DNA of 56,072 bases from Steroidobacteraceae bacterium (GCA_036496405.1 DASXLF010000564.1:1-56072); one strand, 5' to 3'. Counted from the first letter of the stretch, positions 13,545 to 33,347 are shown. A program made the numbers and translations. Notes: generated by a model not told the origin, from the sequence alone.

Positions 13545-13588
13545 GAATCGCCTCCAACAGCGATGGACATCAGGAGGCGGATAATCGT

Positions 13589-14758: not shown

Positions 14759-14998
14759 TTAGTTGCAGCCGCAGCCGCCGCCGACGCTGCCGGTCGCGCC
14801 ACGCGCGCCTTCGCGCACCTCGAATACGTGATCGAGGTAAGTGCTCGAGACCGGATTCGGGTCGAACGACATGATCGGGTCAGCCAGATGCTCGCGCTCG
14901 TACGGCTTGACCCACGGCTGCAACGGCGAACAGCCGCCCAGCAGCCCGATCGCCAAGGGCGCGAGCAGCGCGAGCATGCCGAGCCGGCGTCGCGTCAT
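14759..14998 (-). CDS. DUF4266-family small lipoprotein
   Basis: 79 aa with lipobox LLGGCS, then PWVKPYEREHLADPIMSF and a C-terminal GGGCGCN. Its stop codon directly abuts the DUF3570 ATG. Confidence 0.8.
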   Translation of the reverse strand: MTRRRLGMLALLAPLAIGLLGGCSPLQPWVKPYEREHLADPIMSFDPNPVSSTYLDHVFEVREGARGATGSVGGGCGCN

Positions 14999-15000: not shown

Positions 15001-15528
15001 CTACTCCCGCACCAAGCTTCGAATCTGATCCAGGTATTCGCTTTCCTCGCCGGGCTTATAGCCATGATGCACGTAGCGTACCTTGCCGGTGCGATCGAGT
15101 ATCACGGTGCTGGGCATGCCGGACACCTCGTACAGCTTACTGACCTTGCTGTCGGTGTCGAACAGTATCGGAAATGAGACAGGGGTGGACTTCAGGAAGC
15201 CCACGGCATCGGCGCTCTTGGGCTCAACGTTGACGCCCAGCAAGGTGAATCCGGCGGCCTTGTACTTCTTGTAGAGCTGGTCGAGCACCGGCATTTCCTG
15301 GCGGCATGGTCCGCACCAGCTGGCCCAGAAGTTGATCAGCACTACCTGGCCTTTGAGATCGCTCAGGGACATATCCTTGCTTCCCGAGGAGGGCAGTTCG
15401 AATCCGGGCGCCACCGCCCCGGCGGTGATACTGTCCGCTACGGCCGCGGCACTGAGGGCCAGCGCCACGCCACACACCAGAACCCGCACTGTCGTCCGCA
15501 CCTGATCATGGACCGCGCTTGCTTTCAT
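15001..15528 (-). CDS. TlpA-family periplasmic thiol:disulfide oxidoreductase
   Basis: I trimmed the start to the ATG at 15528, which has a GGAG SD. The protein has a signal/anchor segment and the thioredoxin motif FWASWCGPCRQEMP. It lies 2 nt upstream of the DUF4266 gene. Confidence 0.85.
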   Translation of the reverse strand: MKASAVHDQVRTTVRVLVCGVALALSAAAVADSITAGAVAPGFELPSSGSKDMSLSDLKGQVVLINFWASWCGPCRQEMPVLDQLYKKYKAAGFTLLGVNVEPKSADAVGFLKSTPVSFPILFDTDSKVSKLYEVSGMPSTVILDRTGKVRYVHHGYKPGEESEYLDQIRSLVRE

Positions 15529-15572
15529 AAGGTCTCCGTCGCGAGCGCACGCGCCTTTGCGGCGGCATGCGT

Positions 15573-16271
15573 CTAGAAGAATACGGTCGCACCAATGGTT
15601 GCCTGAAGATTGTTCTTCAGCTCCTCCACACCCGTGACGTCGGACCTGAAGACCAGGTCCTGCACGTCGATATGCAACGCCAGCCAATCCGTCGGCAGCA
15701 CCCTGAAGCCGGCCCCGAAGTTCACCGTGAAGTTTTGATCACCCGCGAACTTGACGCTGCCGATGCCGCCGAGCACGTAAAACGCGCTGGTCATGGCGAG
15801 ATTGCGACCGATGAAGATCTCGCCCGGGAGCAAGTTGTAGCCCAGAGACAGGTTGTAATACGTGAAGCGCCTCTCAGCATCGGAAAGCAATTGCACGTTG
15901 CTCAGCGTCTCAAAGCTGGTAAAGCCAGCCTTGGCGCGGCCGTAGGTCGCCTCGGCGAAGAAATCCTCGCTGATGTGATAATCGAAGCGCAGTCCCGCCA
16001 CCGGTTGCGAGCCGAAGTCCTGGATGGACAGCTCACCGTAATACGCTCCCAATTCAACGTTGCTGGGACGGATCGTCGGCACCTTGATGGTGCGCCGCTC
16101 CACCTGTGGCTCGATGACGCTGGGTGGCGGCGAGTCCTTGTCGCTGGCTCCCGACGTCTGGTCCGACGGCTGCACACCGTCATCCGGTTTGGCGTGCCGA
16201 TGGAACATGGCGCAGCCGCCGCAAGCGAGCGCAACGAAGCTCAGTAAAAGAATGCGAATCCGAGTTTCCAT
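15573..16271 (-). CDS. Outer-membrane beta-barrel lipoprotein, unknown function
   Basis: Lipobox-like LACGGC, a Pro/Ser-rich linker, then alternating amphipathic strands ending in ATVFF. Its ATG at 16271 lies 31 nt inside the upstream gene. Confidence 0.7.
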   Translation of the reverse strand: METRIRILLLSFVALACGGCAMFHRHAKPDDGVQPSDQTSGASDKDSPPPSVIEPQVERRTIKVPTIRPSNVELGAYYGELSIQDFGSQPVAGLRFDYHISEDFFAEATYGRAKAGFTSFETLSNVQLLSDAERRFTYYNLSLGYNLLPGEIFIGRNLAMTSAFYVLGGIGSVKFAGDQNFTVNFGAGFRVLPTDWLALHIDVQDLVFRSDVTGVEELKNNLQATIGATVFF

Positions 16272-17026
16272 TCGTTCTTGACCTCGTTGCTGTTTTGATT
16301 CGTCAGGACCTCATGCTCGCGCAACTCACCGCGCAGAAACAGTCGCCGGCTCAAGTAAAAGCGCACACCCAGTCCGACGTAGGCGGTCTGATTGCTGGAA
16401 CTGACCGGTTGCGCCAGCGTGGCCTTTGGTTCCACCCGCTCATAGCCGCCGCCGAGGGTTACAAACGGCGAAAGACGCCGATTGGGCAGGAACACGTGAC
16501 TGAAACCCAGGTCGATCAAATAGCCATTGGACAGATTGCCGAGAAACTGGGAGGCGGATAGTTCTATTTTCAGGTTGTCAGTCAGCGACAGTGCCTGATA
16601 AGCCGAAATCAGTGTGGCGCCGGCATAGGCGCCGCCAAATGCGCCGCTCTCCCAGCGATGACTGGCAAATCCGGCGAGATCGCCGAGATTGAGCTGGAAC
16701 GGCGTACCGTCCGCCAGGGTCGTGCGCATGAGGTCGCGTTCGTACGCCCAGCCCTCGACGCCGCGTTCGGTGCGGACCTTGAACCACTCGGTGCGTCGCA
16801 TCAACACGTCCACCGATTCGCCACGGGCCACCACCTGGGTGACCGGGTAGCCGCGGCCGGGTCCGGTGTGCAGCTCCAAATAGGGCTGCACGACGAACAA
16901 TTGCAGATAGTCGCGCGCACTGGCATCAGCCGCCGCCCCGAGCGAGAGCAGCAGCGCGGCGAGCAGGGGAGCGACCTTAGTTGGCCAGCGGCGCGTCGAA
17001 CGGGTTGTTGTAATACTGAGCTCCAA
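16241..17026 (-). CDS. Bacterial SH3-domain plus outer-membrane beta-barrel protein
   Basis: Signal peptide, then an SH3b-like segment (LELHTGPGRGYPVTQVVARGESVDVLMRRTEWFKVRTERGVEGWAYERDL). A beta-barrel-like C-terminal half ends in FAFFY. The only in-frame start ahead of the signal peptide is the TTG at 17026, which overlaps the upstream gene by 50 nt. Confidence 0.65.
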   Translation of the reverse strand: MELSITTTRSTRRWPTKVAPLLAALLLSLGAAADASARDYLQLFVVQPYLELHTGPGRGYPVTQVVARGESVDVLMRRTEWFKVRTERGVEGWAYERDLMRTTLADGTPFQLNLGDLAGFASHRWESGAFGGAYAGATLISAYQALSLTDNLKIELSASQFLGNLSNGYLIDLGFSHVFLPNRRLSPFVTLGGGYERVEPKATLAQPVSSSNQTAYVGLGVRFYLSRRLFLRGELREHEVLTNQNSNEVKNEWKLGFAFFY

Positions 17027-19760
17027 TATCCACCCACTCTGACAACAGCCGCAGCTCCGCTGCGGTCATGAACCCGGCATGGTTCACTGTCCCCGTCACG
17101 CTGCAGCCCATGCTGGCGCCGGTGATCGTCGCGAAAAAGCACGAGCCGTTGGCGCTGCCGGCGGCAATCGGACCGGGCACCGCTACCCCCGAGTCTACCA
17201 ACTGATTGGTCATGTTGAGTGATAAGACGTCGTGAGTCTCCACGAGCTGGGTATAGGCGCGCAACTGCGCGGTGGCACTTTGCGCCGGATCGGCATCGAG
17301 CTGCAGGTTGCCGTCGGGCGGCATCGGCACCGCCACACCTCCGACCATGGTGGTGCGGGTCGCGGTGTGGCAATTAGTGCAGGTATTGGCACCCAGCGGA
17401 TTCACGCTGATGTCACCGCGCACCATGCTCCACAACGGATCGATGATGGTCGGGTAGTTGATGATGCTCAGGCAATACCCCGACCATACGCCCACGCACG
17501 CCTGCACAATTGGCAGGTTCGAGGTCAGTGCGCTGTAGGCGTATGAAATGGGTGCGTTCGGACCGGTGGTATTGGTGTTGCCGTCGCCCCAGGCGTCGTT
17601 GAATATCACATCCGCGCTCAATGGCGCCGCCGATGGCGTGGCGGCGTTGTTGTTGCAACTGACACTGCCCACCAGTTCCTGCGCCATGGTGTCACCCGGG
17701 CATAGCGTCAGCGTCGGTACGCTGCCATTGCCGGCAGCGGTGAAAGTCGAGCCGTCGCCGGCGTTGAGAGCGGTGAATAGTCCGGCGCGGCCATGCGATC
17801 GGCCGCTGACCTCGACCGCGATGCCATCGGCGCCAGTGATCACCTGCGAACCTTGCGGGGTGTGACAACCATTACAGCTCAGCACTTCGCCCGGCTGTAC
17901 CGTCAACCAGGAGCGGTGCCGCGGGAAGTCCGGTAATGCCCTGGCATTGGCGTCCAGCACCGTGATCTGAAAGGCCACATTCGCCGGCACCATCACACGC
18001 ACCGAGCCGTCGGGCTCGATCGGTACGTAGCCGAGCAGCTGGCGCATGTAGCCCACTGAGCCGCCGAGCGCGATGTTGCGGTCGAATTTCGGAAACCCGT
18101 CCTTGAGCCGGGTATCGCCGAAAGCCACGGCCTTCTCGATGCGCAGGAATCGCGCTGGCCGGTTCGCGGCGCTGGCTGTAGCCACCGACCCCAGGCTGGC
18201 ATTGGCGCCGAGGCCGGCCGCGACACCGTCGCGATCGTAGACGCTGCGGATGTCGAGAATGCCGTAAGCGGGATCGAATCCCTGGGGTACCGCGGAGTCG
18301 AGCGGGCAACTGATAGTGTTGGTGCAGGGAATGGTGCGCGGCTCCAGCGACACCAGGTCACTGATCATCTCGCCTTCTACCGGCGCGAAGATGGGTTTCA
18401 GCGTGCTGTCGTTGAAATTGAGCAGCCAGGCGCTGTAGAGCGGCGGCGCGAGCGACAGACCGGTAGCGCTGGAGTTCACGTTGGCGAGGTTGTCGGCGCT
18501 GCACGCGACGATCACGCCGGTGGCATCCTGCAGCCGGCATTGACCCCAACTCACCAGCACGCGGTTGGTGCCGTCCCACAGGGGGAAGGCTGAATTGAAA
18601 CGCCCGCCCGGCGAGGGCACCGGCACGCCGTTGGCGGTTTGTGTACGCACGTCGTTCTGGGTGGCGGTGGTTTGTGCGGTCGCGGCAGTCGGGTAGAGCG
18701 TGTCGGGCAGCGACTGATTATTTTCGGCGAAGCCGTCGATGTTGATGATCTGCAGATTGCCGCCGAAGTCGGCATCGGCAAACGGGCGTACCAGCGCCAG
18801 CACGCGACCGTCCTGCAACTGGCGCGTGTTCACGAATTGCACCGCGCAGCTCAGGCCCGACGGGCACTGTGCGGCGTCCGACGGATTGGTACTGCTGGTC
18901 TCGTGGCTTTGCGCGCCGTACAGCAACTGCACGCCGGTGCCATCGGGATTGGCACTGTAGAGATGCATGGCGCTGCCGCCGGTGCGCCCCGGCGTGTTGT
19001 CCCAGCGGCTCCACATGATGCGACCGCTGGACATCAACGAGGCGTCGACGTCATGACTGGGGTTGTATGAGATCTGATGAATGCCGGTGCCGTCAGCATT
19101 CATTACTTCCAGCAGAAAATCCGAGGTGTTCTGCGACTCGGTCTGGGCTTCGAACGGTTGCACGTTCTCGCCAGTGCCGCCTTCATTGATCAACACCTCG
19201 CGCGATGTGGTCTGGCGTGTCGAGGAGAAGACGATGCGGCCGTCGGTGAGATAGTGCGGGCCGACATCGTTGGCATTGGGTTCGGTGTCGACACTGGTGC
19301 CAGTCAGCTGGCTCAGCACTTTTCCCGGCACATTGTATTGCCAGATGTGCCAACTCGGGGGCGAGAAATCCTGTTGGTTCGGAGTGATCGGGCCACGCAT
19401 GGCGAATACCAGCAAGGTGCCATCCGGCGACACGTCCAGGTCTTTCACATCCCAGACATCGGTGCCGGTGACGCTGGCGGTAATGTTCTGTTCCACGCCG
19501 GTGGGACTGGCGCTGGTGCGCACATAGACATCGGCCTTGCCCCAGTAGTTGCGCGGGAGCGTCACGTCGTCCTTGGCGCGCAGTTGTGCCAGGCCGGCGG
19601 CGTCGGCCGGCAGCGTGCGTTTGACGTAGGCAATCGCGAAGTCGATGTTCAATCCGCTCGAGGACTGACCCTTGCCGATATTGAGATCACCGCGACTGCT
19701 GCAGGCAGCGATGATTGCCGCCGCGAGCGCGATGCCCAGCGTGCGTGTTTGACGTCTCAT
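16977..19760 (-). CDS. Large lipoprotein: TolB-like beta-propeller plus C-terminal dihaem c region (hydrazine synthase alpha-subunit-like architecture)
   Basis: Lipobox AIIAACSS, with propeller-type repeats (VSPDGTLLVF, LTDGRIVFSS, NADGTGIHQIS, ANPDGTGVQLLY). There are two CxxCH motifs, CNGCH at 17862-17876 and CTNCH at 17367-17381. The start is either the ATG at 19760 or the TTG at 19769. Confidence 0.8.
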   Translation of the reverse strand: MRRQTRTLGIALAAAIIAACSSRGDLNIGKGQSSSGLNIDFAIAYVKRTLPADAAGLAQLRAKDDVTLPRNYWGKADVYVRTSASPTGVEQNITASVTGTDVWDVKDLDVSPDGTLLVFAMRGPITPNQQDFSPPSWHIWQYNVPGKVLSQLTGTSVDTEPNANDVGPHYLTDGRIVFSSTRQTTSREVLINEGGTGENVQPFEAQTESQNTSDFLLEVMNADGTGIHQISYNPSHDVDASLMSSGRIMWSRWDNTPGRTGGSAMHLYSANPDGTGVQLLYGAQSHETSSTNPSDAAQCPSGLSCAVQFVNTRQLQDGRVLALVRPFADADFGGNLQIINIDGFAENNQSLPDTLYPTAATAQTTATQNDVRTQTANGVPVPSPGGRFNSAFPLWDGTNRVLVSWGQCRLQDATGVIVACSADNLANVNSSATGLSLAPPLYSAWLLNFNDSTLKPIFAPVEGEMISDLVSLEPRTIPCTNTISCPLDSAVPQGFDPAYGILDIRSVYDRDGVAAGLGANASLGSVATASAANRPARFLRIEKAVAFGDTRLKDGFPKFDRNIALGGSVGYMRQLLGYVPIEPDGSVRVMVPANVAFQITVLDANARALPDFPRHRSWLTVQPGEVLSCNGCHTPQGSQVITGADGIAVEVSGRSHGRAGLFTALNAGDGSTFTAAGNGSVPTLTLCPGDTMAQELVGSVSCNNNAATPSAAPLSADVIFNDAWGDGNTNTTGPNAPISYAYSALTSNLPIVQACVGVWSGYCLSIINYPTIIDPLWSMVRGDISVNPLGANTCTNCHTATRTTMVGGVAVPMPPDGNLQLDADPAQSATAQLRAYTQLVETHDVLSLNMTNQLVDSGVAVPGPIAAGSANGSCFFATITGASMGCSVTGTVNHAGFMTAAELRLLSEWVDIGAQYYNNPFDAPLAN

Positions 19761-19879
19761 TATCTCCAAGCTCCGTTACCGCTTGATTGAGAGTTCATTC
19801 TTTGGCGCTTCAATGCGATGTGATCCCGGTCTCAGTTTTTAACCCTGCATTCAACGATACGATAACGTTGATACGTAAT

Positions 19880-19915
19880 GAGCCGTGATGTCTGTGCTTT
19901 GAGACATTACGGCTC
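19880..19915. repeat. 14-bp imperfect inverted repeat (hairpin) in the divergent intergenic region
   Basis: GAGCCGTGATGTCT (19880-19893), loop gtgctttg, AGACATTACGGCTC (19902-19915). There is one G/A mismatch, which would be a G:U pair in RNA. Confidence 0.3.
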
Positions 19916-19945
19916 TCTGAACCCGTGCGTATAGTCGCTCGCACT

Positions 19946-19964
19946 GTGCAAAGATATTTTGCAC
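19946..19964. promoter_or_regulatory. Perfect palindrome GTGCAAA-gatat-TTTGCAC, candidate operator just upstream of the SD of the plus-strand haem operon
   Basis: Read directly. It sits in the most AT-rich segment of the window (19770-19960) and ends 2 nt before the AGGGAG SD at 19966-19971. Confidence 0.35.
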
Positions 19965-19976
19965 CAGGGAGTGATG

Positions 19977-21158
19977 ATGAGCACAGCAGGGACACGCAGC
20001 AGCGCCGCGCGGCACGCGACGAGCTTGATGCTCGCTGCACTCCTAGGATTTCAGCCGCTGGCCCCGCTCATTGCCGGAGCTAACGAACAGGCCGCTCGCA
20101 TGCACAGCCGTCTGGCCGGCGTACCGCCCAGCAGCGCGGTGCTTGCGCAGATGGCGACGCTGATCAGCAACAACAATGCGCAGGCTGCGGCGCAGCTGGC
20201 GATGAACAACAGCGGCTTCTACAACGTGACGCTGCGCAATTTCATCGCGCCGGCGACCAATCGCGCGCAGTCGCCGTTCGTGCCGCTCAACGACTACACC
20301 GCCACCGTCATCGGCATGATCCGCGACAATGTGCCGTTCAACACGGTGCTGTCGGCGGATCTGCTCTACATAGGCAACGTCAGCGGCGCACCGCCGTATT
20401 CGCCGAGCAACAATAATCACTACCAGTATCTCGACGACCACGGCGTGGACCTGAAATCCGCGCTTGTTGCGACGACGCAGTCCTCGCTTACCGGCATACC
20501 GTCTTCGGCCACCGCCGGGGTGATCACCACCGAGGCGGCGGCGGCGGCGTTTTTCATTGCCGGCACTAATCGCGCGATGTTCCGCTTCACCATGATCAAC
20601 TACCTGTGCAATGACATGCCGCAGGTCATGGATATCTCGCGGCCGCCGGATCGCATCCGCCAGGACGTCAGCCGCTCACCCGGCGGAGACAGCCGCGTGT
20701 TCCTGAATAATTGCATCGGTTGCCACGCCGCCATGGATCCCATGGCGCAGGCATTCGCGTACTACAACTACGATCCGACGGCGCTGCAGCTGGTCTACAC
20801 GCCCGGGCAGACGCAGGCGAAGTATCACATCAACACTGGCAACTTCCCGTATGGCTTTGTCACGCCGGACGACTCATGGGACAACCGCTGGCGTACCGGA
20901 CCGAATGCATTACTGGGCTGGAGCCCGGGGCTGCCCGGCAGCGGCAATGGCGCCAAGTCGCTGGGGCAGGAATTGGCCAGCAGTCAGGCGTTCGCCGACT
21001 GTCAGGTGCAGAAGGTATTTCAGGCCATATGCCTGCGTCCGCCGAGTAATGCTGCCGATCGCACCGAGGCGGCGCAAATCGTCGCCGACTTCAAGTCCGG
21101 CGGATACAACATGAAGCAGGTCTTTGCCGAGACTGCCGCGTACTGCATGGGTAACTAG
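19977..21158 (+). CDS. Secreted monohaem protein, DUF1585/DUF1588-like (Planctomycete PSCyt/PSD-type)
   Basis: I chose the ATG at 19977, 5 nt after the AGGGAG SD; the track uses the TTG at 19959. It has a signal-like N-terminus. CIGCH at 20712-20726 sits in the context NNCIGCHAAMDPMAQAF, which resembles the C..CH...DP.G motif I recall for DUF1588. Confidence 0.75.
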   Translation: MSTAGTRSSAARHATSLMLAALLGFQPLAPLIAGANEQAARMHSRLAGVPPSSAVLAQMATLISNNNAQAAAQLAMNNSGFYNVTLRNFIAPATNRAQSPFVPLNDYTATVIGMIRDNVPFNTVLSADLLYIGNVSGAPPYSPSNNNHYQYLDDHGVDLKSALVATTQSSLTGIPSSATAGVITTEAAAAAFFIAGTNRAMFRFTMINYLCNDMPQVMDISRPPDRIRQDVSRSPGGDSRVFLNNCIGCHAAMDPMAQAFAYYNYDPTALQLVYTPGQTQAKYHINTGNFPYGFVTPDDSWDNRWRTGPNALLGWSPGLPGSGNGAKSLGQELASSQAFADCQVQKVFQAICLRPPSNAADRTEAAQIVADFKSGGYNMKQVFAETAAYCMGN

Positions 21159-21189
21159 GCGACGCCGCCGGCCTCTCTGGGAGACTACA

Positions 21190-23691
21190 GTGAATCGAAT
21201 CCGTCCCCGTCCGCCGACTCTGGTGCTCCAGCTGGCCCTGCTGGGGCTGGTCGCCTGTTCCGGCGGCGCACCCACGACGCAGAATCCGAACACTGCCGTC
21301 ACCACCGCATCCGTGTACGCCGGGCCGGCGCCGGCATCGGCGGACGTCGAGGCGTTCAAGGTCAATCTGTGGCAGAACATCAATATGGCGTCGCGCTGCG
21401 GTGGCTGCCACAAAGCCGGCGGACAGTCGCCGATGTTCGCGCGCAGCGACGATGTCAACCAGGCCTATAGCGCCGCGCTCACGGTGGTCAATCTCACGCA
21501 GGCCGATCAGTCCACCATGGTGGTCAAGGTCGCGGGCGGACACAATTGCTGGCTCTCGAGTCCGTCGGCGTGCGCGGACATTCTCACCACATGGATTCAG
21601 AACTGGGCCGGAGGCGGCTCGGGCGGCGCTGCCGGCTCGACACAGATCGTGCTCACCGCGCCGGTCGATCAGGCGGTGGGACCGACCAAGCAGTTCCCGG
21701 CCGACTCATCGCTGTTCTCCAGCACGGTGTATCCGTTGCTGACCATGTTCTGCTCGCGCTGCCATTCCCCGAATGCGACCGTGCCGCAGTCGCCGTATTT
21801 CGCCAGCAGCAACGTCGATCAGGCGTACGCCGCGGCGCAGGCCAAGATCGACCTGAATGATCCGACGCTCTCGCGCTTCTACGTGCGCCTGGCGACGGAA
21901 TCGCACAATTGCTGGCCGACCACGACCGGTGGCCCGGTGGACTGCCCCGGAAGCGCCGCCCGCATGCTGGCGGCGATCCAGGCCTATGCCAATGCCGTGC
22001 CGACCACGCCGGTGGATCCGACGCTGGTAGTGTCGCGCGCCCTCACGCTCTACGCCGGTACGGTCGCCTCCGGCAATAATCGCTATGACGCCGACATCAT
22101 TGCCCGCTGGCTGTTCAAAGAGGGCAGCGGCAGCACCGCCTTCGACACCAGCGGCGTCGATCCGGCGATCAACCTGACGATCTCGGGCAATACCAACTGG
22201 GACAGCGCCTGGGGCCTGATCTTCGGCACTGGCGGCGCCAAGGCCCAGGGCTCGACCGCCACCAGCAGCAAAATCTTCAGCGCCATCAACACCAGTGGCC
22301 AATATTCGCTCGAGCTGTGGGCCGCGCCGGCCAACGTCACCCAGACCATGGCCTTCATGGGGGGCTACTCCGGCGGCACCGCGGCGCGCAATTTCACGCT
22401 CGCCCAGGATGCCATGCAGTATCAGGCGTACGGGCGCAGCACCGTCACTGATGCCAATGGCGCGCCGCCATTGACTACTGCTGCCGCCAATATGAATGCG
22501 CAGGCGGCATTGCAGCACATCGTCCTCACCTACGATCCCACTCACGGACGTCAGCTGTTCGTCAACGGCAACTTCACCGGTGACTTAGACCCGCTGACCG
22601 GCGGCACGCTCGGCAACTGGGACAACACCTTTGCCTTCCTGCTCGGCAATGAAACGTCCAATGACCGGCCATGGCAGGGAGAAATCCGTTTTGCCGCGGT
22701 CCACAACCACGCCATGACGCTGGCGCAGATTCAGGAGAACTACGCCGCCGGCGTCGGCCAGCTCTACTATTTGTTGTTCGACGTCAGTGCGCTGACCGGT
22801 GTCTCGCAGAGCTACATCATGTTCACCGCCAGCCAGTACGACAATTACAGCTATCTGTTTGACAAGCCGACGTTCATCAGTCTCAACCCGAAGGCACAGC
22901 CCGGAAATATTCCGATCAAGGGCCTGTACATCGGCATCAACGGTCAGGAAGCGGCGGTCGGCCAGGCTTACAGCACGCTGAATACCACGGTGAGCAACGC
23001 CAATTATTCACCCACCGCCGGTCAGCTGCTGTCGAGCATGGGTACGGTGTTGCCCATGCAGCTCGGGCCGGCGACCGATCTGTTCTTTCTGAGCTTCGAT
23101 CAGATCGGCACCAACACCCACGTGCGCACCTCGCCCACTCCCACGGCGCCGACGCCCACGGATCTCGCGCCTTCGGCCGATATTGGGCTGCACGTGTACG
23201 ATGAACTCAACGCCTCGATGGCGGGCATCACCGGAGTATCTCCAGGCCTGAGCGCGGTCAACACCACCTATCAGACCGTGGAGCAGCAATTGCCAACGGT
23301 AGCGAATATCCAGGGCTTCCTGCCGTCGCAGGAAATCGGTATCTCGCAGCTGGCAATCCAGTACTGCAATGCGCTGGTCAACGACAGTACGCTCGAGCCG
23401 GCATTCTTCCCTGGCCTGAATCTGAACCAGACTCCGGCAGCGGCGTTCGGTACCACCGCCGGCATGGACCTGGTGATCACGCCGCTGATCAACAGTCCCG
23501 CCATCGGTGCCGGTCTGGCCAGCCAGCCCACGGCCGCGCAGGTGCGCACCGAGCTCTACAGCCTGATGACGAACCTCGTCAACTGCAGCGTCAGTGATCC
23601 GACCTGCGTGCAGACCCCGACGCGTACCCAGACCATCACCAAGGCCGTGTGCGCCACCGTGCTCGGCAGCGCGACGACTTTGATCAAGTAG
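21190..23691 (+). CDS. Lipoprotein with duplicated CxxCH haem-c module and central LamG/concanavalin-like domain
   Basis: I chose the GTG at 21190, which has a GGGAG SD; this gives VNRIRPRPPTLVLQLALLGLVAC/SG with a lipobox. CGGCH is at 21397-21411 and CSRCH at 21751-21765, each followed about 45-55 aa later by HNCW. LamG-like hallmarks are present (WLFKEGSGSTAFDTSG...LFVNGNF...WQGEIRFAAVHNHAMTLAQIQENY). Confidence 0.75.
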   Translation: MNRIRPRPPTLVLQLALLGLVACSGGAPTTQNPNTAVTTASVYAGPAPASADVEAFKVNLWQNINMASRCGGCHKAGGQSPMFARSDDVNQAYSAALTVVNLTQADQSTMVVKVAGGHNCWLSSPSACADILTTWIQNWAGGGSGGAAGSTQIVLTAPVDQAVGPTKQFPADSSLFSSTVYPLLTMFCSRCHSPNATVPQSPYFASSNVDQAYAAAQAKIDLNDPTLSRFYVRLATESHNCWPTTTGGPVDCPGSAARMLAAIQAYANAVPTTPVDPTLVVSRALTLYAGTVASGNNRYDADIIARWLFKEGSGSTAFDTSGVDPAINLTISGNTNWDSAWGLIFGTGGAKAQGSTATSSKIFSAINTSGQYSLELWAAPANVTQTMAFMGGYSGGTAARNFTLAQDAMQYQAYGRSTVTDANGAPPLTTAAANMNAQAALQHIVLTYDPTHGRQLFVNGNFTGDLDPLTGGTLGNWDNTFAFLLGNETSNDRPWQGEIRFAAVHNHAMTLAQIQENYAAGVGQLYYLLFDVSALTGVSQSYIMFTASQYDNYSYLFDKPTFISLNPKAQPGNIPIKGLYIGINGQEAAVGQAYSTLNTTVSNANYSPTAGQLLSSMGTVLPMQLGPATDLFFLSFDQIGTNTHVRTSPTPTAPTPTDLAPSADIGLHVYDELNASMAGITGVSPGLSAVNTTYQTVEQQLPTVANIQGFLPSQEIGISQLAIQYCNALVNDSTLEPAFFPGLNLNQTPAAAFGTTAGMDLVITPLINSPAIGAGLASQPTAAQVRTELYSLMTNLVNCSVSDPTCVQTPTRTQTITKAVCATVLGSATTLIK

Positions 23692-23714
23692 AGATTTCAT
23701 ACGAGGCGCCAGTC

Positions 23715-25307
23715 ATGAAGATCAGACGCAAGCGGCCCCTGGGGCTGCACGACCCGCTCCGCCACCCGGATCATCCGCGGCCTTTCAGCCGCAGGGATTT
23801 CCTGGCGCAGGGCTTCATGCGTGGTGCCGCCACCGTTGCGGGCATGTCAGTCTTCAGTCTGTTTGCCGATCCGCGCAAGGCGTACGCCACGCTGGCGCCG
23901 GACATTGCCGCACTCAAGGCTTCGCCGTGCAACATCACCACCGGCTCGGGCATGATTCCTTTTATCTGCTTCGACCTTGCCGGCGGCGGCAACATTGCCG
24001 GCTCCAACGTGCTGGTCGGCGGCGGTGGCGGTCAGATGGATTTCCTGTCCACCGCTGGCTATAACCGCCTCGGACTGCCCGGCAACATGATCCCCAATGG
24101 CTCCGCCGGGATCGGCAACTTCATCGATCAAAGTCTGGGTCTCGCGTTTCACAGCGACAGCGCCTATCTGCGCGGCATTAAGCAGCGCATCGCCGTGGCG
24201 ACCGCGGCCAACGTCAATGGGGCGGTCATGCCGGCGATGAGCGAGAACGATACTGGCGACAACCCTCACAACCCCATGTACGGAATCTATAGTTCCGGCT
24301 ATGCGGTGTTGACCCCGCCGGCGGGGGATAAGGGCGACCTGCTGGCGCTGATCGGGACCGAGAGCTCAACCTCCGGCGGAAATTCCATGGCGCCGTCGTA
24401 CATGATCGACCCGACCGTGCCTCCGACCAAAGTCTCGCAGGCTTCGGATGTGACCGGGCTGGTGAGCACCGGCCAGCTGGTCGGACTGCTCAGCCAGAGC
24501 GATGCGACATTGGTGCTCGAATCGATCGAGCGCATCAGCAAGAACAAGCTCGATTCGGTCGACACCCTGCTCGGTACCCAGGACGCGGTGGTCAAGGACC
24601 TGGTGCAGTGCGGCTACGTGGGCGCGGCCGATCAGGTGGATCGCTACGGCAATGCCAGCGCGACTTTGAATCCCGACATGGACACCGCGATCGTCGGCCC
24701 GGGCGGTATATTCACCACCGCCGAGTACCAGGGTGACGCGAATTTCCGCGCCACCGCCGCGGTCATGAAAATGGTGGTGAACGGTTATGCGGCCGCCGGC
24801 ACCGTCGAACTCGGCGGCTACGACTACCACACGGGTGATCGTGCCACCGGCGAGATGCGCGATGTCGAAGCCGGTCAGTGCATCGGCGCCTGCCTGGAGT
24901 ACGCGGCGCGCATGGGACAGCCGCTGATGATCTATGTATTCACCGATGGCTCCGTGGTGTCGAGCGGCATGATCGACAATTCGGCGGGCGGTCGCGGCAA
25001 GGGTGTATGGACATCCGATAACCAGACCACCGCGGCAACGTTCTTCCTGGTCTACAACCCCAACGGCCGGGCGACCACGATCTCCAACCAGATCGGCAGC
25101 TACACCAGCGACGGTAACGTCAACACGACCTCCAGCCCCGGCGCCAACGCCGTCAACCTGCTGGCTGAGACCGTGGTATTGAACTACCTGGCGCTGCATA
25201 ACAAGGCCGGTGCGTTCCAGACGTTGCAGTGGGCCAGCGGTCTTGGCACCGGCTTGGGTAGTGCCAGCGCCTACGATGCGTTGATCGCTCTGGCGCCTAT
25301 TCGTTAG
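23715..25307 (+). CDS. Tat-exported protein, DUF1501/DUF1552-like (sulfatase-fold-like) partner
   Basis: ATG at 23715 with a GAGG SD 8 nt upstream. The twin-arginine motif FSRRDFLAQG is at 23787-23804. GGYDYHTGD is reminiscent of the GGWDTH motif of DUF1501. The family call is tentative. Confidence 0.7.
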   Translation: MKIRRKRPLGLHDPLRHPDHPRPFSRRDFLAQGFMRGAATVAGMSVFSLFADPRKAYATLAPDIAALKASPCNITTGSGMIPFICFDLAGGGNIAGSNVLVGGGGGQMDFLSTAGYNRLGLPGNMIPNGSAGIGNFIDQSLGLAFHSDSAYLRGIKQRIAVATAANVNGAVMPAMSENDTGDNPHNPMYGIYSSGYAVLTPPAGDKGDLLALIGTESSTSGGNSMAPSYMIDPTVPPTKVSQASDVTGLVSTGQLVGLLSQSDATLVLESIERISKNKLDSVDTLLGTQDAVVKDLVQCGYVGAADQVDRYGNASATLNPDMDTAIVGPGGIFTTAEYQGDANFRATAAVMKMVVNGYAAAGTVELGGYDYHTGDRATGEMRDVEAGQCIGACLEYAARMGQPLMIYVFTDGSVVSSGMIDNSAGGRGKGVWTSDNQTTAATFFLVYNPNGRATTISNQIGSYTSDGNVNTTSSPGANAVNLLAETVVLNYLALHNKAGAFQTLQWASGLGTGLGSASAYDALIALAPIR

Positions 25308-25477: not shown

Positions 25478-26017
25478 GTGCGAGTGCGGCTGAAGCATCG
25501 AGCGAACCGAACTGCCGGGCTCTGCCTGTGGTTGTATTGCGGCCTGCACTGGGGCGCCGCAACCGCGGCCAGTCCCGGCATCGTGGCACAGCGCGCGCCG
25601 GATTTTGCGCTGCCGGCAGCCGTTGGCGACAACGTGCGGCTGTCCGAATTCCGCGGCCAACCCGTGGTGCTCACATTCTGGAGCAGCCGCTGCAGTACCT
25701 GCGCGGCACAACTTGCGGCACTCGATCGTTACTACGCAACCTACCGCTCATCAGGTCTGGTGGTGCTGGGCGTCAGTGTCGAGGATGATCCGCAGCGCGC
25801 CTTACAATATGCGCGCGCACACTCGACTGCGTATCCGTTGCTGCTCGATCAGGCCAAGGCAGTTGCCCGCGCCTATGAGATCGAGCGCCTGCCGACTACG
25901 GTACTGATCGATCGCTCCGGCGTCGTGCGCTACCTGCACAGCGATGATCATCCCGCTGATACGTCCTACGTGACACAGATCCGCGCCTTGCTGGACGACA
26001 AAGTGGGCGCCCCATGA
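25478..26017 (+). CDS. TlpA/ResA-like periplasmic redoxin with CSTC active site
   Basis: Thioredoxin-fold pattern APDFALP...GQPVVLTFWSSRCSTCAAQL...YPLLLD...LPTTVLIDRSG, with a signal-like N-terminus. The GTG start is uncertain by a few codons. Confidence 0.8.
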   Translation: MRVRLKHRANRTAGLCLWLYCGLHWGAATAASPGIVAQRAPDFALPAAVGDNVRLSEFRGQPVVLTFWSSRCSTCAAQLAALDRYYATYRSSGLVVLGVSVEDDPQRALQYARAHSTAYPLLLDQAKAVARAYEIERLPTTVLIDRSGVVRYLHSDDHPADTSYVTQIRALLDDKVGAP

Positions 26018-26667
26018 ACTCTCTCACATCAATGCAGTCTCCCATGAACACAATGATTCGCCGTCTATCGTCGAGCTTCTGGCCGTTGCTGCTGCTGCCG
26101 CTCACCACTCCTGCATGGTGCGCCCAGCCGGCCGCGCCCGCCGCCGCCAGTGCTCCCGCGGCCCAGGCCGAGTCCGCTGCGTCCAAGAGCGATGCCGCTG
26201 CCGCCGATGCCGGCGGCGGCACGCGTGGGCTGGACGAGCAGATCCAGGACCTCAAGAAGGATGTCGTGGATCTCAACAAGGATCTGTTCGTGCTCGAAGA
26301 GGAACTGCTGTTTCCGGCCAACACGCAAGTGGCGGTGTTCGTGTCGATGGACGTCGGCGATTTCTTCGCCCTGGATTCGATCTCGCTGAAGATCGACAAT
26401 AAAGATGTCAGCGACTACCTGTATACCCCGCGAGAAGTGGCGGCATTGCTCAAGGGCGGGGTGCAGCGCCTGTACGTCGGCAATCTCAAGTCCGGCGAAC
26501 ACGAACTGGTGGCGCTGTTCAATGGCAAGGGACCGCACGAGCGCGACTACCGGCGCGCCGCCAACCTGCGCTTCGAAAAGGGCGTTGGTGCGAAGTACCT
26601 GGAACTGAAGATCACGGATCACCAGCGTGCGCAGCAACCCGAGTTCGAAATCAAGGATTGGGAATAG
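26014..26667 (+). CDS. Secreted protein, unknown function (coiled-coil plus beta-rich domain)
   Basis: The start overlaps the redoxin stop in ATGA. It has a signal peptide (FWPLLLLPLTTPAWC/AQP), an Ala-rich linker, a coiled-coil LDEQIQDLKKDVVDLNKDLFVLEEELL and then a beta-rich domain. I recognise no family. Confidence 0.65.
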   Translation: MNSLTSMQSPMNTMIRRLSSSFWPLLLLPLTTPAWCAQPAAPAAASAPAAQAESAASKSDAAAADAGGGTRGLDEQIQDLKKDVVDLNKDLFVLEEELLFPANTQVAVFVSMDVGDFFALDSISLKIDNKDVSDYLYTPREVAALLKGGVQRLYVGNLKSGEHELVALFNGKGPHERDYRRAANLRFEKGVGAKYLELKITDHQRAQQPEFEIKDWE

Positions 26668-26674
26668 CGGGCGT

Positions 26675-28621
26675 ATGAGCGGCTGGCGTTTCGGACTGGG
26701 ATTGTGCGCGCTGCTGGCGGGTGTCGGCCTGACGCCTGCGCAAGCCGCGCATAAGAGCGATCCGAACAAGCTGCCGAGCATTCGCGTGCAGGACCTGCAC
26801 TACGGCGAGGTGCTGTTCCAGTTCTACTCCGGCCAGGAATTCCAGGCGCTCACCGAACTCGAGGCCTTCAGCCAGTGGCATCGCATGCCGCATCACGCCG
26901 CTGATGCGGACCTGCTGGCCGGTGGCCTGTATCTCGAACTCGGCATGCACAACGAGGCGGGACGGCGCTTCGAGCGCCTGCTCACCGACAACATTCCCGT
27001 CGGTGTGCGCAATCGCGCCTGGTTCTATCTGGCGAAGATCTGGTACGAACGCGGCTACTACGAGCGTAGCGAACAGGCGATCGGTCGCATACAAGGCACC
27101 CTGGACACGCAACTCGAGGCTGAGCGGGTGCATCTGCTGGTCAACGCACTCATGCGCCAGCAACGCTACGACGACGCCATCGCATTGCTCCGGGGCTGGC
27201 ACGGCCCCGCGGATTGGATGGCCTATGCAGGCTTCAACCTGGGGGTGGCACTGGTGCGCGCCGGACGCCTGCCGGAAGCCGATCCGATCCTGACATCGGT
27301 TGGCACGCTCAACACCAGCAGCGATGAATTGCTGAATCTGCGGGACAAGGCCAATCTGGCGTTGGGATTCGCCTACCTGCAGGCCGATCAGAGCGCCAAG
27401 GCGCGTGCGCCGCTGGAACGCGTGCGGTTGAACGGGCCGTACTCGAGCCGCGCCTTGCTCGGTGACGGTTGGGCACATGCTGCACAAGGCGAGTATCGCG
27501 CTGCGCTCACACCCTGGCTCGAACTTCGTCAGCGCAATCTGCTGGACGCGGCGGTGCAGGAATCGTTCCTCGCCGTTCCCTATGCCTTCAGTAAACTCAA
27601 TGCCAATGGCCAGGCGGCCGACTACTACGAGTCGGCGCTGAGCTCATTCGCCAGCGAGTCGGACAATCTCGACTCGGCGATCGCGAATATTCAGCAAGGC
27701 CACATGCTCGATGACCTGCTGGGCGACGACAAGGACGCGCGCTACGGCTGGTTCTGGCAGCTCAAGGCCTTGCCCGACTCGGCGCAGTCGCGCTATCTCT
27801 ACTCAATACTGGCGGACAACGATTTTCAGGAAGGGCTCAAAAACTATCGCGATCTGGCGTTCCTGCAGGGCACCTTGCGGCACTGGGATGACAGCATGGA
27901 GGCGTTCGCGGCGATGATCGAGACCCGTCAGCGCGCATACGCCGAGCGACTGCCGCGCGCCGACGCGCTGCTCAACAGCGACACTCAGACGCGACTGCGC
28001 GACGCGCGTGTCGCTGTCGGATCGCAGCTCGATGCGGCCGAGACCGGTAACGACGTGGCCGCGCTCGGCACGCCGACCGAGCGCGAACAATGGGCGCACC
28101 TGGCCCGGCTTGCCGATGTGTTGGCCAGCATGCCGCCCGGTTCCGAGCGTGATGCGGCCCGCGACAAGCTGCGACTGATCAAGGGTGTGCTGTATTGGCG
28201 GTTGGACGCCAGCTTCAAGGAACGCGCCTACGAACAACGGCACTCGTTGCGCGAACTGGACGCGGCGCTCGATGAGTTGCAGAACCGCTGGGTACGCGTG
28301 CAGCAGGCGCGCGCCACGGTGCCGAACGATACCGGTGAATACGCGGTTCGTATCGCCGCGCTGGCAGTTCGCGTCCAGGCCATGCATAAGCGCCTGGAGC
28401 AATCGTCGCAACAGCAGAGCAAATACCTGGATGAGCTGGCTGAATCGGAATTGCGCGCACAGAAGCAGCGTCTCGATGCTTATGCCCTGCAGGCGCGCTA
28501 CGCGCTGGCGGACATTTACGATCGCGCCGACGATCAGCAGGGGGCGGCCAAGAAGCCGGACGCACCTGGCGCCGGAGATGCGGCGCCGCCGGTCCCGGTT
28601 CCGGTCCCGGAGTCGCAATGA
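26675..28621 (+). CDS. Secreted TPR-repeat protein (about 648 aa)
   Basis: I chose the ATG at 26675 (MSGWRFGLGLCALLAGVGLTPAQA, a signal peptide). The N-terminal half has TPR-like repeats and the C-terminal half has long coiled-coil segments. Confidence 0.75.
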   Translation: MSGWRFGLGLCALLAGVGLTPAQAAHKSDPNKLPSIRVQDLHYGEVLFQFYSGQEFQALTELEAFSQWHRMPHHAADADLLAGGLYLELGMHNEAGRRFERLLTDNIPVGVRNRAWFYLAKIWYERGYYERSEQAIGRIQGTLDTQLEAERVHLLVNALMRQQRYDDAIALLRGWHGPADWMAYAGFNLGVALVRAGRLPEADPILTSVGTLNTSSDELLNLRDKANLALGFAYLQADQSAKARAPLERVRLNGPYSSRALLGDGWAHAAQGEYRAALTPWLELRQRNLLDAAVQESFLAVPYAFSKLNANGQAADYYESALSSFASESDNLDSAIANIQQGHMLDDLLGDDKDARYGWFWQLKALPDSAQSRYLYSILADNDFQEGLKNYRDLAFLQGTLRHWDDSMEAFAAMIETRQRAYAERLPRADALLNSDTQTRLRDARVAVGSQLDAAETGNDVAALGTPTEREQWAHLARLADVLASMPPGSERDAARDKLRLIKGVLYWRLDASFKERAYEQRHSLRELDAALDELQNRWVRVQQARATVPNDTGEYAVRIAALAVRVQAMHKRLEQSSQQQSKYLDELAESELRAQKQRLDAYALQARYALADIYDRADDQQGAAKKPDAPGAGDAAPPVPVPVPESQ

Positions 28622-31600
28622 AGCGCCGGCGCCTGCAGGTGCTGGTCGTGCGCTGTGCCATATTGCTGGCCGCGGCGTCGCCCGCCATGGCGGCCAAGAA
28701 CACCAAGCCCGCAGCCCCGACCATTGGCGATCTGAGTGCCAAGACGGTCGACGTGAATCCGGCACCGGCCAAGGGCGGCGGTGCCGCCAAGGCGATGGAG
28801 AACTATCGCCAGTTCCTCAATCTGCAGAATGCCGATCCGCGCTTGCGCGCCGAAGCGATGCGGCGCCTGGGTGATTTGAACCTGGAGTCCGGCGAACTCG
28901 AACGCATGTCCAATGAGGTGACGCAGCTCGACATGCAGGGAGCCGAAGCCATCCGCCTGTATTCGACGCTGCTCAAAGCCTATCCCGACTATCAGCGCAA
29001 CGACCAGGTGCTCTATCAGCTGGCGCGCGCCTATGAGACCACCGGCCAGACGCCGTTGGCGCTCGCGACCCTCGATACCATCGTCGCCCGCTACCCGAGG
29101 GGACGCGACATTGCCGAGGTGCAGTTCCGGCGCGGCGAGATTCTGTTCTCGAACCGGCGCTATCCGGAGGCGCAGCTGGCCTACGAGGCGGTGCTGGCGC
29201 GCGGCCGCGACGGCTCGACCTTTTACGCGCAGAGCCTGTACAAGCACGGCTGGTCGCAATTCAAGCAGGGCATGAACGAGGTCAGCTTGAAGTCGTTTGC
29301 CGATCTGCTCGATCTGACTTTGACCGACCCGAAGAGCCCGGGGCGCATGCGTCCGTGGGAAACCCTGTCGCGTCCCGATCGGGAATTGGCGGAAGATACG
29401 TTGCGGGTCATGAGTATTACGTTCTCGTACCTCGATGGTGCGAAGACGCTGGATGATTTTGCCGCTCGCCGCGGCCATATGGTTTATGCGTGGCTGCTGT
29501 ATTCGCGCCTGGGCGACCTGTACGTGGAGAAGCAGCGTTTTCAGGACGCAGCCGCGACCTATCGCGCCTTCGTCAGCCGTGATCCGATCGATGAGCACGC
29601 GCCGACGCTCGAGATGGCGGCCATCGAGGCCTACCGCAAGGGTGGCTTCGCCGACCTGATGCTCGACGGCAAGCTCGAGTATGCGCAGCGCTACGGCTTC
29701 GGCGCCCCGTTCTGGCAGGGCCGCGAGCACAGCGCCTATCCGCAATTGGTCGAGGAACTCAAAACCAACTTGAAGGACGTGGCTCAGTACTATCACGCCA
29801 GCGCGCAGAAAACCAAAAAGCCCGACGACTACGCGGCCGCGGCGCATTGGTATCGCACCTACCTGAGCTCGTTCCCGGATGATCCGGATTCCGCCGCCAC
29901 CAACTATCTGCTGGCCGATGCACTGTTCGAAAGCCGGCAGTACCAGGACGCCGCGGGCGAATATGAACACACCGCCTACGGCTATCCGCGCAACGCGCGC
30001 TCGGCCGAGGCGGGTTACGCGGCACTGGTGGCGTACCAGAAGTACGAGGACACGCTGAGCCCGGACGCGCGCGCCAGCGCGCATCAGCGGACCACCGAAG
30101 CCGGGCTCAAGTTTGCGCAGGCATTCCCGGAACATGCGGAAAGCTCCGTGGTGCTGACGCATGCGGCCCAGGATTTGTATGCCGCCGGCGATCAGGCGCG
30201 CGCCGCGCAGGCGGCGCAGACGCTGCTGGCGCGCAATCCGCCAGTGGATGCTGCCAAGCAGCGCATTGCCTGGACGATCGTTGGCCAGGTGAGCTTCAAT
30301 CAGGGCGACTTCGCCCAAGCCGAAAGTGGCTATACCCACGCGCTGGCCGCGGCGGCGGCCAACGATCCCGAACGCGCCGATATCACGGAACGACTGGCGG
30401 ATGCGGTGTACAAGCAGGCGGCCGCCAAGCGCACCGCCGGTGACCAAGCCGGTGCGGCCCAGGATTTCCTGCGCGTCGCGCGCATTGCGCCCGGATCCAA
30501 GGTTATCGCGACGTCGCAATACGATGCCGCCGCTTCGCTGATCAGCGCCCAGCAATGGGACCAGGCGATTGCCGTGCTCGAGGCCTACCGCCGCGACTAT
30601 CCCAAGAGCGAATACAACGCCGATATCGATCGCAAGCTTGCGGTTGCCTATGAACAGGGCGGCCACTCGGCCCAGGCCGCGGCGCAATACGAACACATCG
30701 CCGACAACGCTCACGAAGATCGCGCGGTGGTGCACGAGGCGATCGTGAAGGCCAGCGATCTATATGCAAAGTCAGGCGATGCCGCACGCAGTACCGCGAT
30801 GCTGGAGCGGCTGGTACGTGACTATCCGACGCCAGTTGCCGATGCGATCGAAGTGCGTCAGCGGTTGCTGGATGCGACCACCAAGTCGGGCAACCTCGAG
30901 CGCCAGCGCTATTGGCAGCGCGAGATCGTCAAGGCCGATGCGAGCGCCGGCAGCGGGCGCACGGATCGCACCAAGTACCTGGCGGCGCGCGCGCAGCTGG
31001 CATTGTCCGAGCCCGTGCGTGATCAATTCCAGGCCATCAAACTCGTGGTGCCACTCAAGCAGAGCCTGATCGCGAAGAAGAAGGCCATGGAGGCGGCGGT
31101 GCAGGCCTACAAGGAGGTCGCCGAGTACCAGGTGGCCGAAACCACGACCGCGGCCACCTACGAGACCGCGGAGCTCTACCGCGTACTGGGCCACGATCTG
31201 ATGACCTCGGAGCGGCCCAAGAAGCTGTCGGCCGACGAGCGCGAGCAATACGACACGCTGCTCGAGGAGCAGGCCTATCCATTCGAAGAGCAGGCGATTG
31301 CGATTCACGAGATCAACGCCAAGCGGGCCGCGGATGGGGTGTACGACGACTCGGTGCGTAAAAGCTTCGATGCCCTGGCGCAACTGCTGCCAGCGCGCTA
31401 CGGCAAGGTCGAGCTCAGCCAGACCTGGGTCGCATCGCTGGCCGCGCCCGGCGCGACTGCCCCGAGCAGCGCAGCCCAGGCCGACTATGACCGCGCCGCG
31501 CAACTCGCGGCCGCAAACAAGGCCACCGAGGCCGAGCTGTCATTGCAGCAGTTCGAGCTGCAGTTTCCGGGTTTCGCGGCCCCGGCGGTCGATCTGGGCT

Positions 31601-32585: not shown

Positions 32586-32664
32586 ATCGCGGTATTGCGC
32601 GTTTGCGTCACTTTAGTTTGACCATATCGGTGGATCATAGCGTTCAGGCATGGGAGTCAGCACG

Positions 32665-33321: not shown

Positions 33322-33347
33322 CACGGCTTTAGGCCCAGGTAGCGCGC

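Follow-up and report, generated by a model that had tools for sequence, protein, structure and literature searches.

Three co-directional open reading frames (ORFs) with short gaps, g1, g2 and g3, occupy positions 19977-25307 of a 56,072-nt stretch of Steroidobacteraceae DNA (the window, examined at its full length). On balance, they appear to constitute one periplasmic or outer-membrane-anchored module, a very divergent and split relative of the planctomycete pairs of a cytochrome with a DUF1501 or DUF1552 protein exported by twin-arginine translocation (Tat). The most likely role of the trio is that of a periplasmic haem-coupled metalloenzyme complex. The earlier note on this DNA, made from the sequence alone, had placed the three ORFs and all motifs quoted for them correctly; the single compact trio of planctomycete style which it described, on the other hand, turned out to be the core of a gammaproteobacterial cluster of 9-18 genes. 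The three genes are as follows.

19977-21158, plus strand: g1, 393 amino acids (aa); predicted Sec-exported mono-haem c protein, remote PSD4-PSCyt3-PSD2 homologue by profile comparison
21190-23691, plus strand: g2, 833 aa; predicted lipoprotein with two CxxCH/HNCW haem units, a Laminin_G_3 domain, a beta region and, at the C-terminus, a domain of helices
23715-25307, plus strand: g3, 530 aa; predicted Tat-exported, Pfam-orphan protein with an alkaline-phosphatase-superfamily, probably DUF1501-like fold

A probable DUF1501-like protein exported by the Tat pathway

With good confidence, g3 can be regarded as a divergent DUF1501-like member of a Tat-exported alkaline-phosphatase-type superfamily. 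The protein, for which the ATG at 23715 is the most likely start, opens with a conserved HxxHPxPxSRRDFL twin-arginine signal (SRRDFL at 23787-23804, reading SRRDFLAQG...SLFADPRKAYA) with an RR pair invariant in 72 sequences, followed by a hydrophobic stretch and an AxA site. Taken over the entire module, this pair, D370, Y371 and H372 of g3 and the CxxCH sites of g1 and g2 show no variation among 22-72 homologues with identities of 30-90%, and the motifs are therefore no product of chance. Further motifs are FHSDS (24147-24161) and GGYDYH (24813-24830). Within the latter, D370, Y371 and H372 are invariant and G368 is nearly so; D411 and D435 are likewise invariant further downstream, while D87 is invariant only in close relatives and D, E or Q in distant ones. 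In an AlphaFold2 (AF2) model built from a 72-sequence alignment (predicted local distance difference test score, pLDDT, 87; predicted template modelling score, pTM, 0.84), the nearly invariant S149 of FHSDS is located at the N-terminus of a helix and the invariant aspartates and histidine D370, H372, D411 and D435 at strand ends.

Conventional sequence searches do not place the protein. Neither Pfam nor NCBIfam gives a match for g3, g3 and its profile retrieve only Tat-signal or noise-type matches among PDB sequences, and the 72 family members have no Pfam family in common at E<=1, with DUF1501 (PF07394) matched by none of the 72 at that threshold. In structure comparison, the top 50 Foldseek matches of the g3 model in the PDB all belong to the alkaline-phosphatase superfamily (sulfatases, iPGM, alkaline phosphatases, MCR-1, ENPP), although with E-values of 5.6e-3 at best; the absence of any such fold, which the earlier note had named as refuting, is not indicated. 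In BFVD, the sole structure library searched that holds a DUF1501 model, the top match is the DUF1501 protein A0A6J5M742 (E 8.4e-5, prob 0.99, 460 columns, TM-score 0.27), and ranks 2-5 and 9 are superfamily members too, including a sulfatase, an alkaline phosphatase, NPP and a DUF229 protein. A DUF1501 reference set retrieved by a consensus-like bait, in which 120 of 120 sequences carry PF07394, permitted a direct profile comparison: hhalign aligns the g3 family with DUF1501 at a probability of 38% (E 3.4e-4) over 93 columns centred on GGYDYH/GGWDTH in colinear position, and under permissive settings (-mact 0.05) at 30% over 374 colinear columns that lead from the Tat signal through beta-1 and GGxDxH to TDGS/GEFGRTP. 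At the GGYDYH/GGWDTH motif, the hidden Markov model (HMM) score is 10 bits versus 1.5 bits for shuffled controls.

A relation of g3 to DUF1552 (PF07586, HXXSHH), which the earlier note had listed for searches together with DUF1501, is not detectable: there is no Pfam match in 72 members, the hhalign probability of 1.6% derives from the Tat signal only, HxxSHH is lacking and the HMM score is no better than that of shuffled sequences. The Tat signal SRRDFL and the DUF1501 likeness, suggested by GGYDYH and now accompanied by the structural match, survive from the earlier characterization of g3. Discarded is the NCBI name 'general secretion pathway protein GspF' attached to several g3 members (P0056, P0253 and P0511); as none of the 72 members has a T2SSF match or a shared Pfam family, this name appears to be an annotation error passed on between records. 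The families of the two Tat partners are themselves homologous. DUF1501 and DUF1552 proteins of metagenome loci (L087-L166) align with an hhalign probability of 89% over 363 columns, whereby GGWDTH stands opposite EGHHELSHH and GEFGRTP...GRDHW opposite YGSG...DGNRHNH, and both can therefore be considered one superfamily. The DUF1501 protein A0A6J5M742 is annotated on an uncultured Caudovirales phage contig, which could be binned host DNA or indicate a phage-borne auxiliary gene; scanning viral contigs for the DUF1552 motif gave only chance matches in phage tail genes.

Alternatively, g3 might be an independent hydrolase of the alkaline-phosphatase superfamily that serves nutrient uptake together with a TonB system, with its DUF1501 likeness confined to the superfamily level and g1 and g2 being unrelated cytochromes. 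The structural matches in the PDB are sulfatases, alkaline phosphatases, iPGM and NPP, the hhalign probability between g3 and DUF1501 stays under 40%, ExbBD-TonB genes follow downstream, and some phosphatases, PhoX and PhoD among them, are known Tat substrates. We consider this explanation unlikely, as the best structural match overall is a DUF1501 protein over 460 columns, the sole sequence match outside the signal falls on the GGWDTH signature, colinear and above shuffled controls, and g1 is a 93% homologue of PSD4-PSCyt3-PSD2, with the genes co-inherited in every locus.

The putative haem proteins g1 and g2

The first gene of the module encodes a protein with a Sec-type signal peptide and one CxxCH motif that is invariant among g1 relatives, here CIGCH at nucleotides 20712-20726 followed by AAMDP. 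Against Pfam, g1 reaches 20 bits (E 5.7e-4) with PSD2 (PF07624, DUF1585) and 14.7 bits (E 0.04) with PSCyt3 (PF07627, DUF1588), under the gathering scores of 25.8 and 27 bits respectively. Among 22 diverse orthologues, PSD2 is matched in 20 (best E 2.6e-6) and PSCyt3 in 14 (best E 6e-3), all weakly and in canonical order; NCBIfam and PDB sequence searches with g1 gave no family, the PDB matches being of the Tat-signal or noise type only.

Profile comparison with a genuine reference set resolved the relationship further. Scanning metagenome contigs for DNA that could encode the DUF1552 motif GHHELSHHG delivered genuine DUF1552 genes in 30 of 30 cases (Pfam E ~1e-111), and the upstream partners of those genes (reference set A7, n=22), DUF1592-type cytochromes, have PSD3, PSD5, PSD4, PSCyt3 and PSD2 in all 22 proteins. 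The g1 family aligns with this set at an hhalign probability of 93.1% (E 3e-7, 280 columns), with residues 35-384, the whole mature length, matching PSD4, PSCyt3 and PSD2 and C..CH..MDP included. Judged by this alignment, g1 is remotely homologous to the C-terminal half of DUF1592-type cytochromes, while the Pfam thresholds do not make it a member. Unlike in DUF1592-type cytochromes, PSCyt1, PSD3 and PSD5 are not present on the g1 polypeptide. Of the PSCyt-like (DUF1588) motif noticed earlier in gene 1, the sequence CIGCHAAMDP and the family relationship stand, while the PSCyt3 threshold of Pfam is not reached. A PSCyt1-PSCyt2-PSD1-type protein, as partners DUF1501, was considered for g1 and is ruled out (hhalign 1.7%).

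The second gene, which most likely starts with GTG at 21190 directly past the g1 stop, encodes the dihaem lipoprotein with a LamG domain that the earlier note had recognized, with a LVAC lipobox (21247-21258), the CxxCH sites CGGCH (21397-21411) and CSRCH (21751-21765), both invariant among relatives, and a Laminin_G_3 domain (PF13385) at ~22288-22734 scoring 57.5 bits (E 2e-15; gathering score 27.6 bits), a domain matched by 20 of 20 relatives. About 45 residues after each CxxCH, an invariant HNCW and then a further cysteine follow; the two putative haem units span 21397-21915. Past Laminin_G_3, a beta-rich stretch leads to an alpha-helical C-terminal domain of ~190 residues (~23107-23688). 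The haem motif F..V.P.L...C..CH of g2 resembles the PSCyt1 region of DUF1592-type proteins (hhalign 85% over just 24 columns), which is the sole significant match of g2 to those proteins, and a sequence search of the PDB with g2 gave Tat-signal or noise-type matches only. PSD3 and PSD5 are undetectable in the g1/g2 module.

In distant relatives, the g2 C-terminal domain (g2C) is a separate lipoprotein of 213-238 aa (HMM E 1e-21 to 1e-27), and the operon order is g1-like, g2C-like lipoprotein, g3-like and then at least one separate cytochrome with a CxxCH...HNC unit. The g2 of the window is therefore a fusion, and the evolutionary core of the module consists of four components. The repeated haem unit (F..V.P.L...C..CH, ~45 residues, (G)HNC(W), seven residues, C) recurs as a module in separate cytochromes of distant relatives (L082:9574-10893, L082:10919-11755 and L083:9659-13786). 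It has only weak Pfam matches (Haem_bd, Cytochrome_CBB3) and may represent an undescribed haem domain with a histidine as distal ligand and a disulfide.

The earlier note had recommended Pfam and HMM searches with these families. In sum, Laminin_G_3 passes and PSCyt3, PSD2, DUF1501 and DUF1552 are below threshold or unmatched; to unrelated, already characterized families, an outcome which it regarded as refuting, HMM searches assign none of the proteins.

The surrounding envelope cluster

Across Gammaproteobacteria, the trio occupies the middle of a conserved envelope cluster of 9-18 genes. Its other features in the window are given below from left to right.

13589-14758, minus strand: DUF3570 protein (DUF3570 E 3e-45), left end of the cluster; syntenic
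14759-14998, minus strand: DUF4266 lipoprotein with a C-terminal CGCN (DUF4266 E 2e-22)
15001-15687, minus strand: TlpA/ResA-like redoxin of thioredoxin fold (Redoxin E 9e-29); syntenic
15573-16271, minus strand: small lipoprotein or outer membrane protein (OMP) beta-barrel protein (OMP_b-brl on the orthologue in locus L001); syntenic in 62/62 loci
16241-17026, minus strand: SH3_3-domain protein with a beta-barrel-like C-terminus; syntenic in 62/62 loci
16977-19769, minus strand: HzsA-like lipoprotein with two CxxCH motifs at residues 632 and 797 (Pfam HZS_alpha E 1e-16)
19770-19976, no strand: intergenic region that separates g1 from the divergent HzsA-like gene, holding a 14-bp inverted repeat
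25478-26017, plus strand: second protein of AhpC/TSA-redoxin fold, 3' of g3 in many loci
26014-26667, plus strand: Pfam-less conserved secreted protein (217 aa), coiled-coil in its N-terminal part and rich in beta structure in its C-terminal part
26627-28621 and 28618-32079, plus strand: two large TPR proteins; syntenic in 36/54 loci with enough downstream flank
32076-32585, plus strand: small Pfam-less protein; syntenic in 36/54 loci with enough downstream flank
32650-33321, plus strand: ExbB; syntenic
33348-33863 and 33860-34384, plus strand: ExbD and ExbD; syntenic
34305-35312, plus strand: TonB_C protein, right end of the cluster; syntenic

Synteny was counted by tblastn of the cluster proteins of the window against 80 related genome loci. 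The genes g1 and g2 adjoin g3 in 65 of 65 loci, and the left arm (DUF3570, DUF4266, redoxin, OMP, SH3 and HzsA-like protein), divergent to g1-g2-g3, is kept in all 62 loci with enough flank. The right arm at 25478-35312 (redoxin, Pfam-less protein, two TPR proteins, small protein, ExbB, two ExbD and TonB) follows in the order of the window in 36 of 54 loci. Best conserved of this downstream arm is the gene at 26014-26667, with up to 88% identity where g3 is at 65-79%. The cluster is bordered on the left by a Ysc84-domain protein (12699-13922, minus strand) next to DUF3570 and, to the right of TonB, by KefB-like, PEP carboxylase, sulfite reductase and GlgE-pathway genes. Farther outside, the window encodes a TonB-dependent receptor (7497-10052, minus strand) and a GlgE/TreS-Mak/GlgB/debranching alpha-glucan set (43574-53427, plus strand).

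The divergent region contains, at 19879-19914, the 14-bp inverted repeat GAGCCGTGATGTCT-N8-AGACATTACGGCTC with one mismatch. This repeat is absent upstream of g1 in 18 related loci, and a search for regulatory elements shared by relatives between the divergent genes gave none; promoter and terminator scans remained at background level, and neither Rfam families nor tRNA genes were detected in the window.

As to the redox proteins of the left arm, the DUF3570 protein of the window reads SSAS and STAS where DUF3570 proteins with experimentally shown flavinylation have two [ST]GA[ST] motifs, and no ApbE or DsbD gene adjoins the cluster within the window. With these motifs and no adjacent ApbE, flavinylation of this DUF3570 protein is therefore doubtful. 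The HzsA-like neighbour that had been pointed out earlier is confirmed not only by the middle domain of HZS_alpha, but also by a match to PDB 5c2v_A (E 2e-5) in three colinear segments; its score with the NCBIfam model hydrazine_alpha is 50 bits, where the cut-off lies at 800 bits. No HzsB or HzsC homologue was found in the cluster.

This neighbour raises a second alternative, namely that the HzsA-like cytochrome is the real enzyme, acting for example on nitrogen oxides, hydroxylamine or in other small-molecule redox reactions, with g1-g3 as accessories for electron transfer or assembly and g3 being non-catalytic. Its gene is divergently adjacent in 62 of 62 gammaproteobacterial loci, three colinear HzsA segments including both CxxCH motifs are kept, and g1 and g2 carry haem motifs. 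Distant lineages, though, retain g1-like, g2C-like and g3-like genes and a cytochrome without the HzsA-like gene, which is in none of the distant loci with this gene order; HzsB and HzsC homologues are missing from the cluster and the hydrazine_alpha score is far below its cut-off, and g3 has invariant residues of metal-ligand type. The primacy of the HzsA-like protein is thus judged improbable.

A putative haem-coupled metalloenzyme complex

In the preferred reading of g1-g2-g3 as one module related to the cytochrome/Tat protein pairs, g3 would be the catalytic, metal-dependent subunit, with the invariant carboxylates and histidine as a putative metal site and S149 in FHSDS as a candidate nucleophile. 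By analogy to the PSCyt/DUF1501 and DUF1592/DUF1552 pairs, g1 would serve as the dedicated haem partner of g3, while g2 would tether the complex to the outer membrane and its LamG domain might bind or present a glycan or another ligand. The three putative haems of g1 and g2 could couple the reaction to neighbouring redox proteins, linking to the HzsA-like dihaem lipoprotein and the DUF3570/DUF4266/thioredoxin set, and the TPR-ExbBD-TonB genes could energise an outer-membrane step. The genetic linkage of the module with redox proteins of the HzsA-like and DUF3570 types, and with a TonB motor, suggests a redox process of the envelope more than simple hydrolysis.

Several observations weigh against this reading. 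All proteins of the window fall short of the Pfam gathering scores of PSCyt3, PSD2, DUF1501 and DUF1552, and the profile probability between g3 and DUF1501 is only 30-38%. The Foldseek search of the PDB with g3 has a best E-value of 5.6e-3, with none at E<=1e-3 and TM-scores of 0.14-0.23, and the TM-scores for g3 are low overall (0.14-0.28). The AF2 model of g1, with close homologues only as input, has a pLDDT of 41 and is unusable. The g2 C-terminal domain reaches an hhalign probability of 0.3% with the DUF1592-type proteins of set A7, with no significant PSD-domain match and the aligned piece at the PSD3 start. The main difficulty is that the alkaline-phosphatase superfamily is hydrolytic or transferase, not redox, in function, which does not account for haem partners.

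A more far-reaching proposal, which we put forward tentatively, is that the g3 family represents a third, unnamed branch of the DUF1501/DUF1552 superfamily which, together with the split PSCyt3-type cytochrome, the HzsA-like protein, the DUF3570/DUF4266/thioredoxin set and the TPR-ExbBD-TonB motor, might form an undescribed energised redox machine directed to the outer membrane in aerobic Gammaproteobacteria.

Distribution and significance

In a metagenome-scale protein set, the clusters formed at 90% identity number at least 8000 for each of g1, g2 and g3, none with a Pfam assignment, and the g3 family has 1323 representatives at 50% identity; in a one-genome-per-species collection, at least 589 matching stretches were confirmed. 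The closest relatives are in metagenome-assembled genomes of Steroidobacteraceae and other Steroidobacterales (79-89% identity), which places the window, as DNA of a soil gammaproteobacterium, in this group, and the cluster is syntenic in Steroidobacterales, Cellvibrionales, Alteromonadales, Marinobacter, Chromatiales and Thiodiazotropha at 57-89% identity. Cultured carriers include six species of Microbulbifer, Marinobacter manganoxydans, Alteromonas nitratireducens, Paraglaciecola arctica, Gilvimarinus algae and Ningiella, and Ca. Thiodiazotropha symbionts are among the carriers as well. Distant members with 30-45% identity occur in Bacteriovoracaceae and Agarilytica, with the four-component core of g1, g2C, g3 and cytochrome kept from Gammaproteobacteria to Bacteriovoracaceae.

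The GC content of the region (0.62-0.64) is the same as that of the flanks, with no compositional anomaly, and tblastn of g1 and g3 against plasmids gave no match. With synteny fixed and GC content uniform, the trio is therefore neither isolated nor recently imported. A recent horizontal import from Planctomycetota or Verrucomicrobiota, in line as it would be with related Pfam families defined and expanded in Planctomycetes, is highly improbable in view of the GC content equal to the flanks, a likeness to genuine PSCyt/PSD and DUF1501 proteins that stays under Pfam thresholds, the deep gammaproteobacterial synteny, and the hundreds of matching stretches and more than a thousand clusters at 50% identity.

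Pairs of PSCyt/PSD and DUF1501/DUF1552 proteins are many in Planctomycetota and Verrucomicrobiota, with many copies per organism and hosts that are hard to manipulate. A metagenome contig (L209:3447-13320) illustrates the multi-copy state in Planctomycetes-Verrucomicrobia-Chlamydiae (PVC)-like genomes as opposed to the single fixed locus here: two PSCyt2/PSD1 plus DUF1501 pairs lie within 10 kb, with one partner split in two ORFs and an insertion sequence (DDE_Tnp_1) between both pairs. Here, by contrast, the locus is stereotyped, recurs in hundreds of species of Gammaproteobacteria and is carried by type strains from the genera Microbulbifer, Marinobacter, Alteromonas and Paraglaciecola, which brings knockouts, cofitness screens and biochemistry within realistic reach. 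Because cultured strains carry the cluster, the suggestion made earlier that the trio could be a tractable model for the whole family is strengthened. With a large Pfam-orphan g3 family that probably belongs to the DUF1501/DUF1552 superfamily, what is gained is a realistic genetic entry to a long-standing question and not a new principle; should g3 indeed represent a third branch, the chemistry of the entire PSCyt/DUF1501/DUF1552 superfamily would come to light through genetic work on Marinobacter, Alteromonas or Microbulbifer.

Comparison with known systems

Planctomycetes are the group in which the PSCyt/PSD and partner families were defined, and they show an expansion of these families; PSCyt2 genes adjoin DUF1501 and PSCyt3 genes adjoin DUF1552 genes, often with Laminin_G_3, with no function known for these PSCyt and DUF1501 or DUF1552 neighbours (PMC5615132; PMC3542564). 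In the literature searched, no function has been assigned to them since their first description. A literature search found no functional paper on DUF1501 from 2018 onwards. In a domain comparison of Pseudomonas, DUF1587, DUF1588, DUF1592 and DUF1595 are among the domains to add for an anaerobically respiring P. putida (PMC7789669), which may hint at a connection of PSCyt3-type proteins with physiology at low oxygen.

Of the neighbouring systems, hydrazine synthase alpha shares with the HzsA-like protein the colinear beta-propeller segment, middle domain and C-terminal segment and two CxxCH motifs; in contrast to the synthase, the protein scores far under the NCBIfam cut-off, is without HzsBC partners and has a host that is not anammox. 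HZS_alpha-domain proteins outside anammox have no confirmed function (PMC12758564), and a literature search for HzsA-like proteins in the carrier genera gave nothing relevant. The set of DUF3570, DUF4266 with a CXC motif and thioredoxin has been described as a flavinylation-associated extracytosolic electron-transfer system (PMC8238504, Meheust et al. 2021). As in those clusters, DUF3570, DUF4266 with a C-terminal CXC and a thioredoxin-fold protein stand side by side in the window, but without adjacent ApbE or DsbD and with SSAS/STAS in DUF3570.

With the pair of a DUF1592-type cytochrome and DUF1552, the module has in common that g1 corresponds over its whole mature length to PSD4-PSCyt3-PSD2 and the g2 haem motif to the PSCyt1 region, that a carbohydrate-binding-type domain is inserted between the haem and helical parts (LamG in g2, CBM60 in 10 of 22 references) and that a gene for a Tat-exported protein, here g3, is adjacent. 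It differs from this pair as it is split over two genes, g1 followed by g2, with PSD3 and PSD5 undetectable and scores under Pfam thresholds, and as the Tat partner g3 is not DUF1552. With the pair of DUF1501 and a PSCyt1-PSCyt2-PSD1 protein, g3 shares the Tat signal, the top structural match and a GGYDYH that lines up with GGWDTH, and, as in some DUF1501 loci (PMC3542564), it adjoins a haem protein that bears Laminin_G_3. Unlike DUF1501 proteins, g3 is ~90 residues longer and has TDGS and GRGKGxW in place of GEFGRTP and GRDHW, while g1 is unrelated to PSCyt2/PSD1. The g1 type normally pairs with DUF1552 but g3 is DUF1501-like, and the pairing is therefore a hybrid. The module is thus unlike both described pair types, combining a PSCyt3-type cytochrome with a DUF1501-like Tat protein in a three-gene split inside a redox/TonB supercluster.

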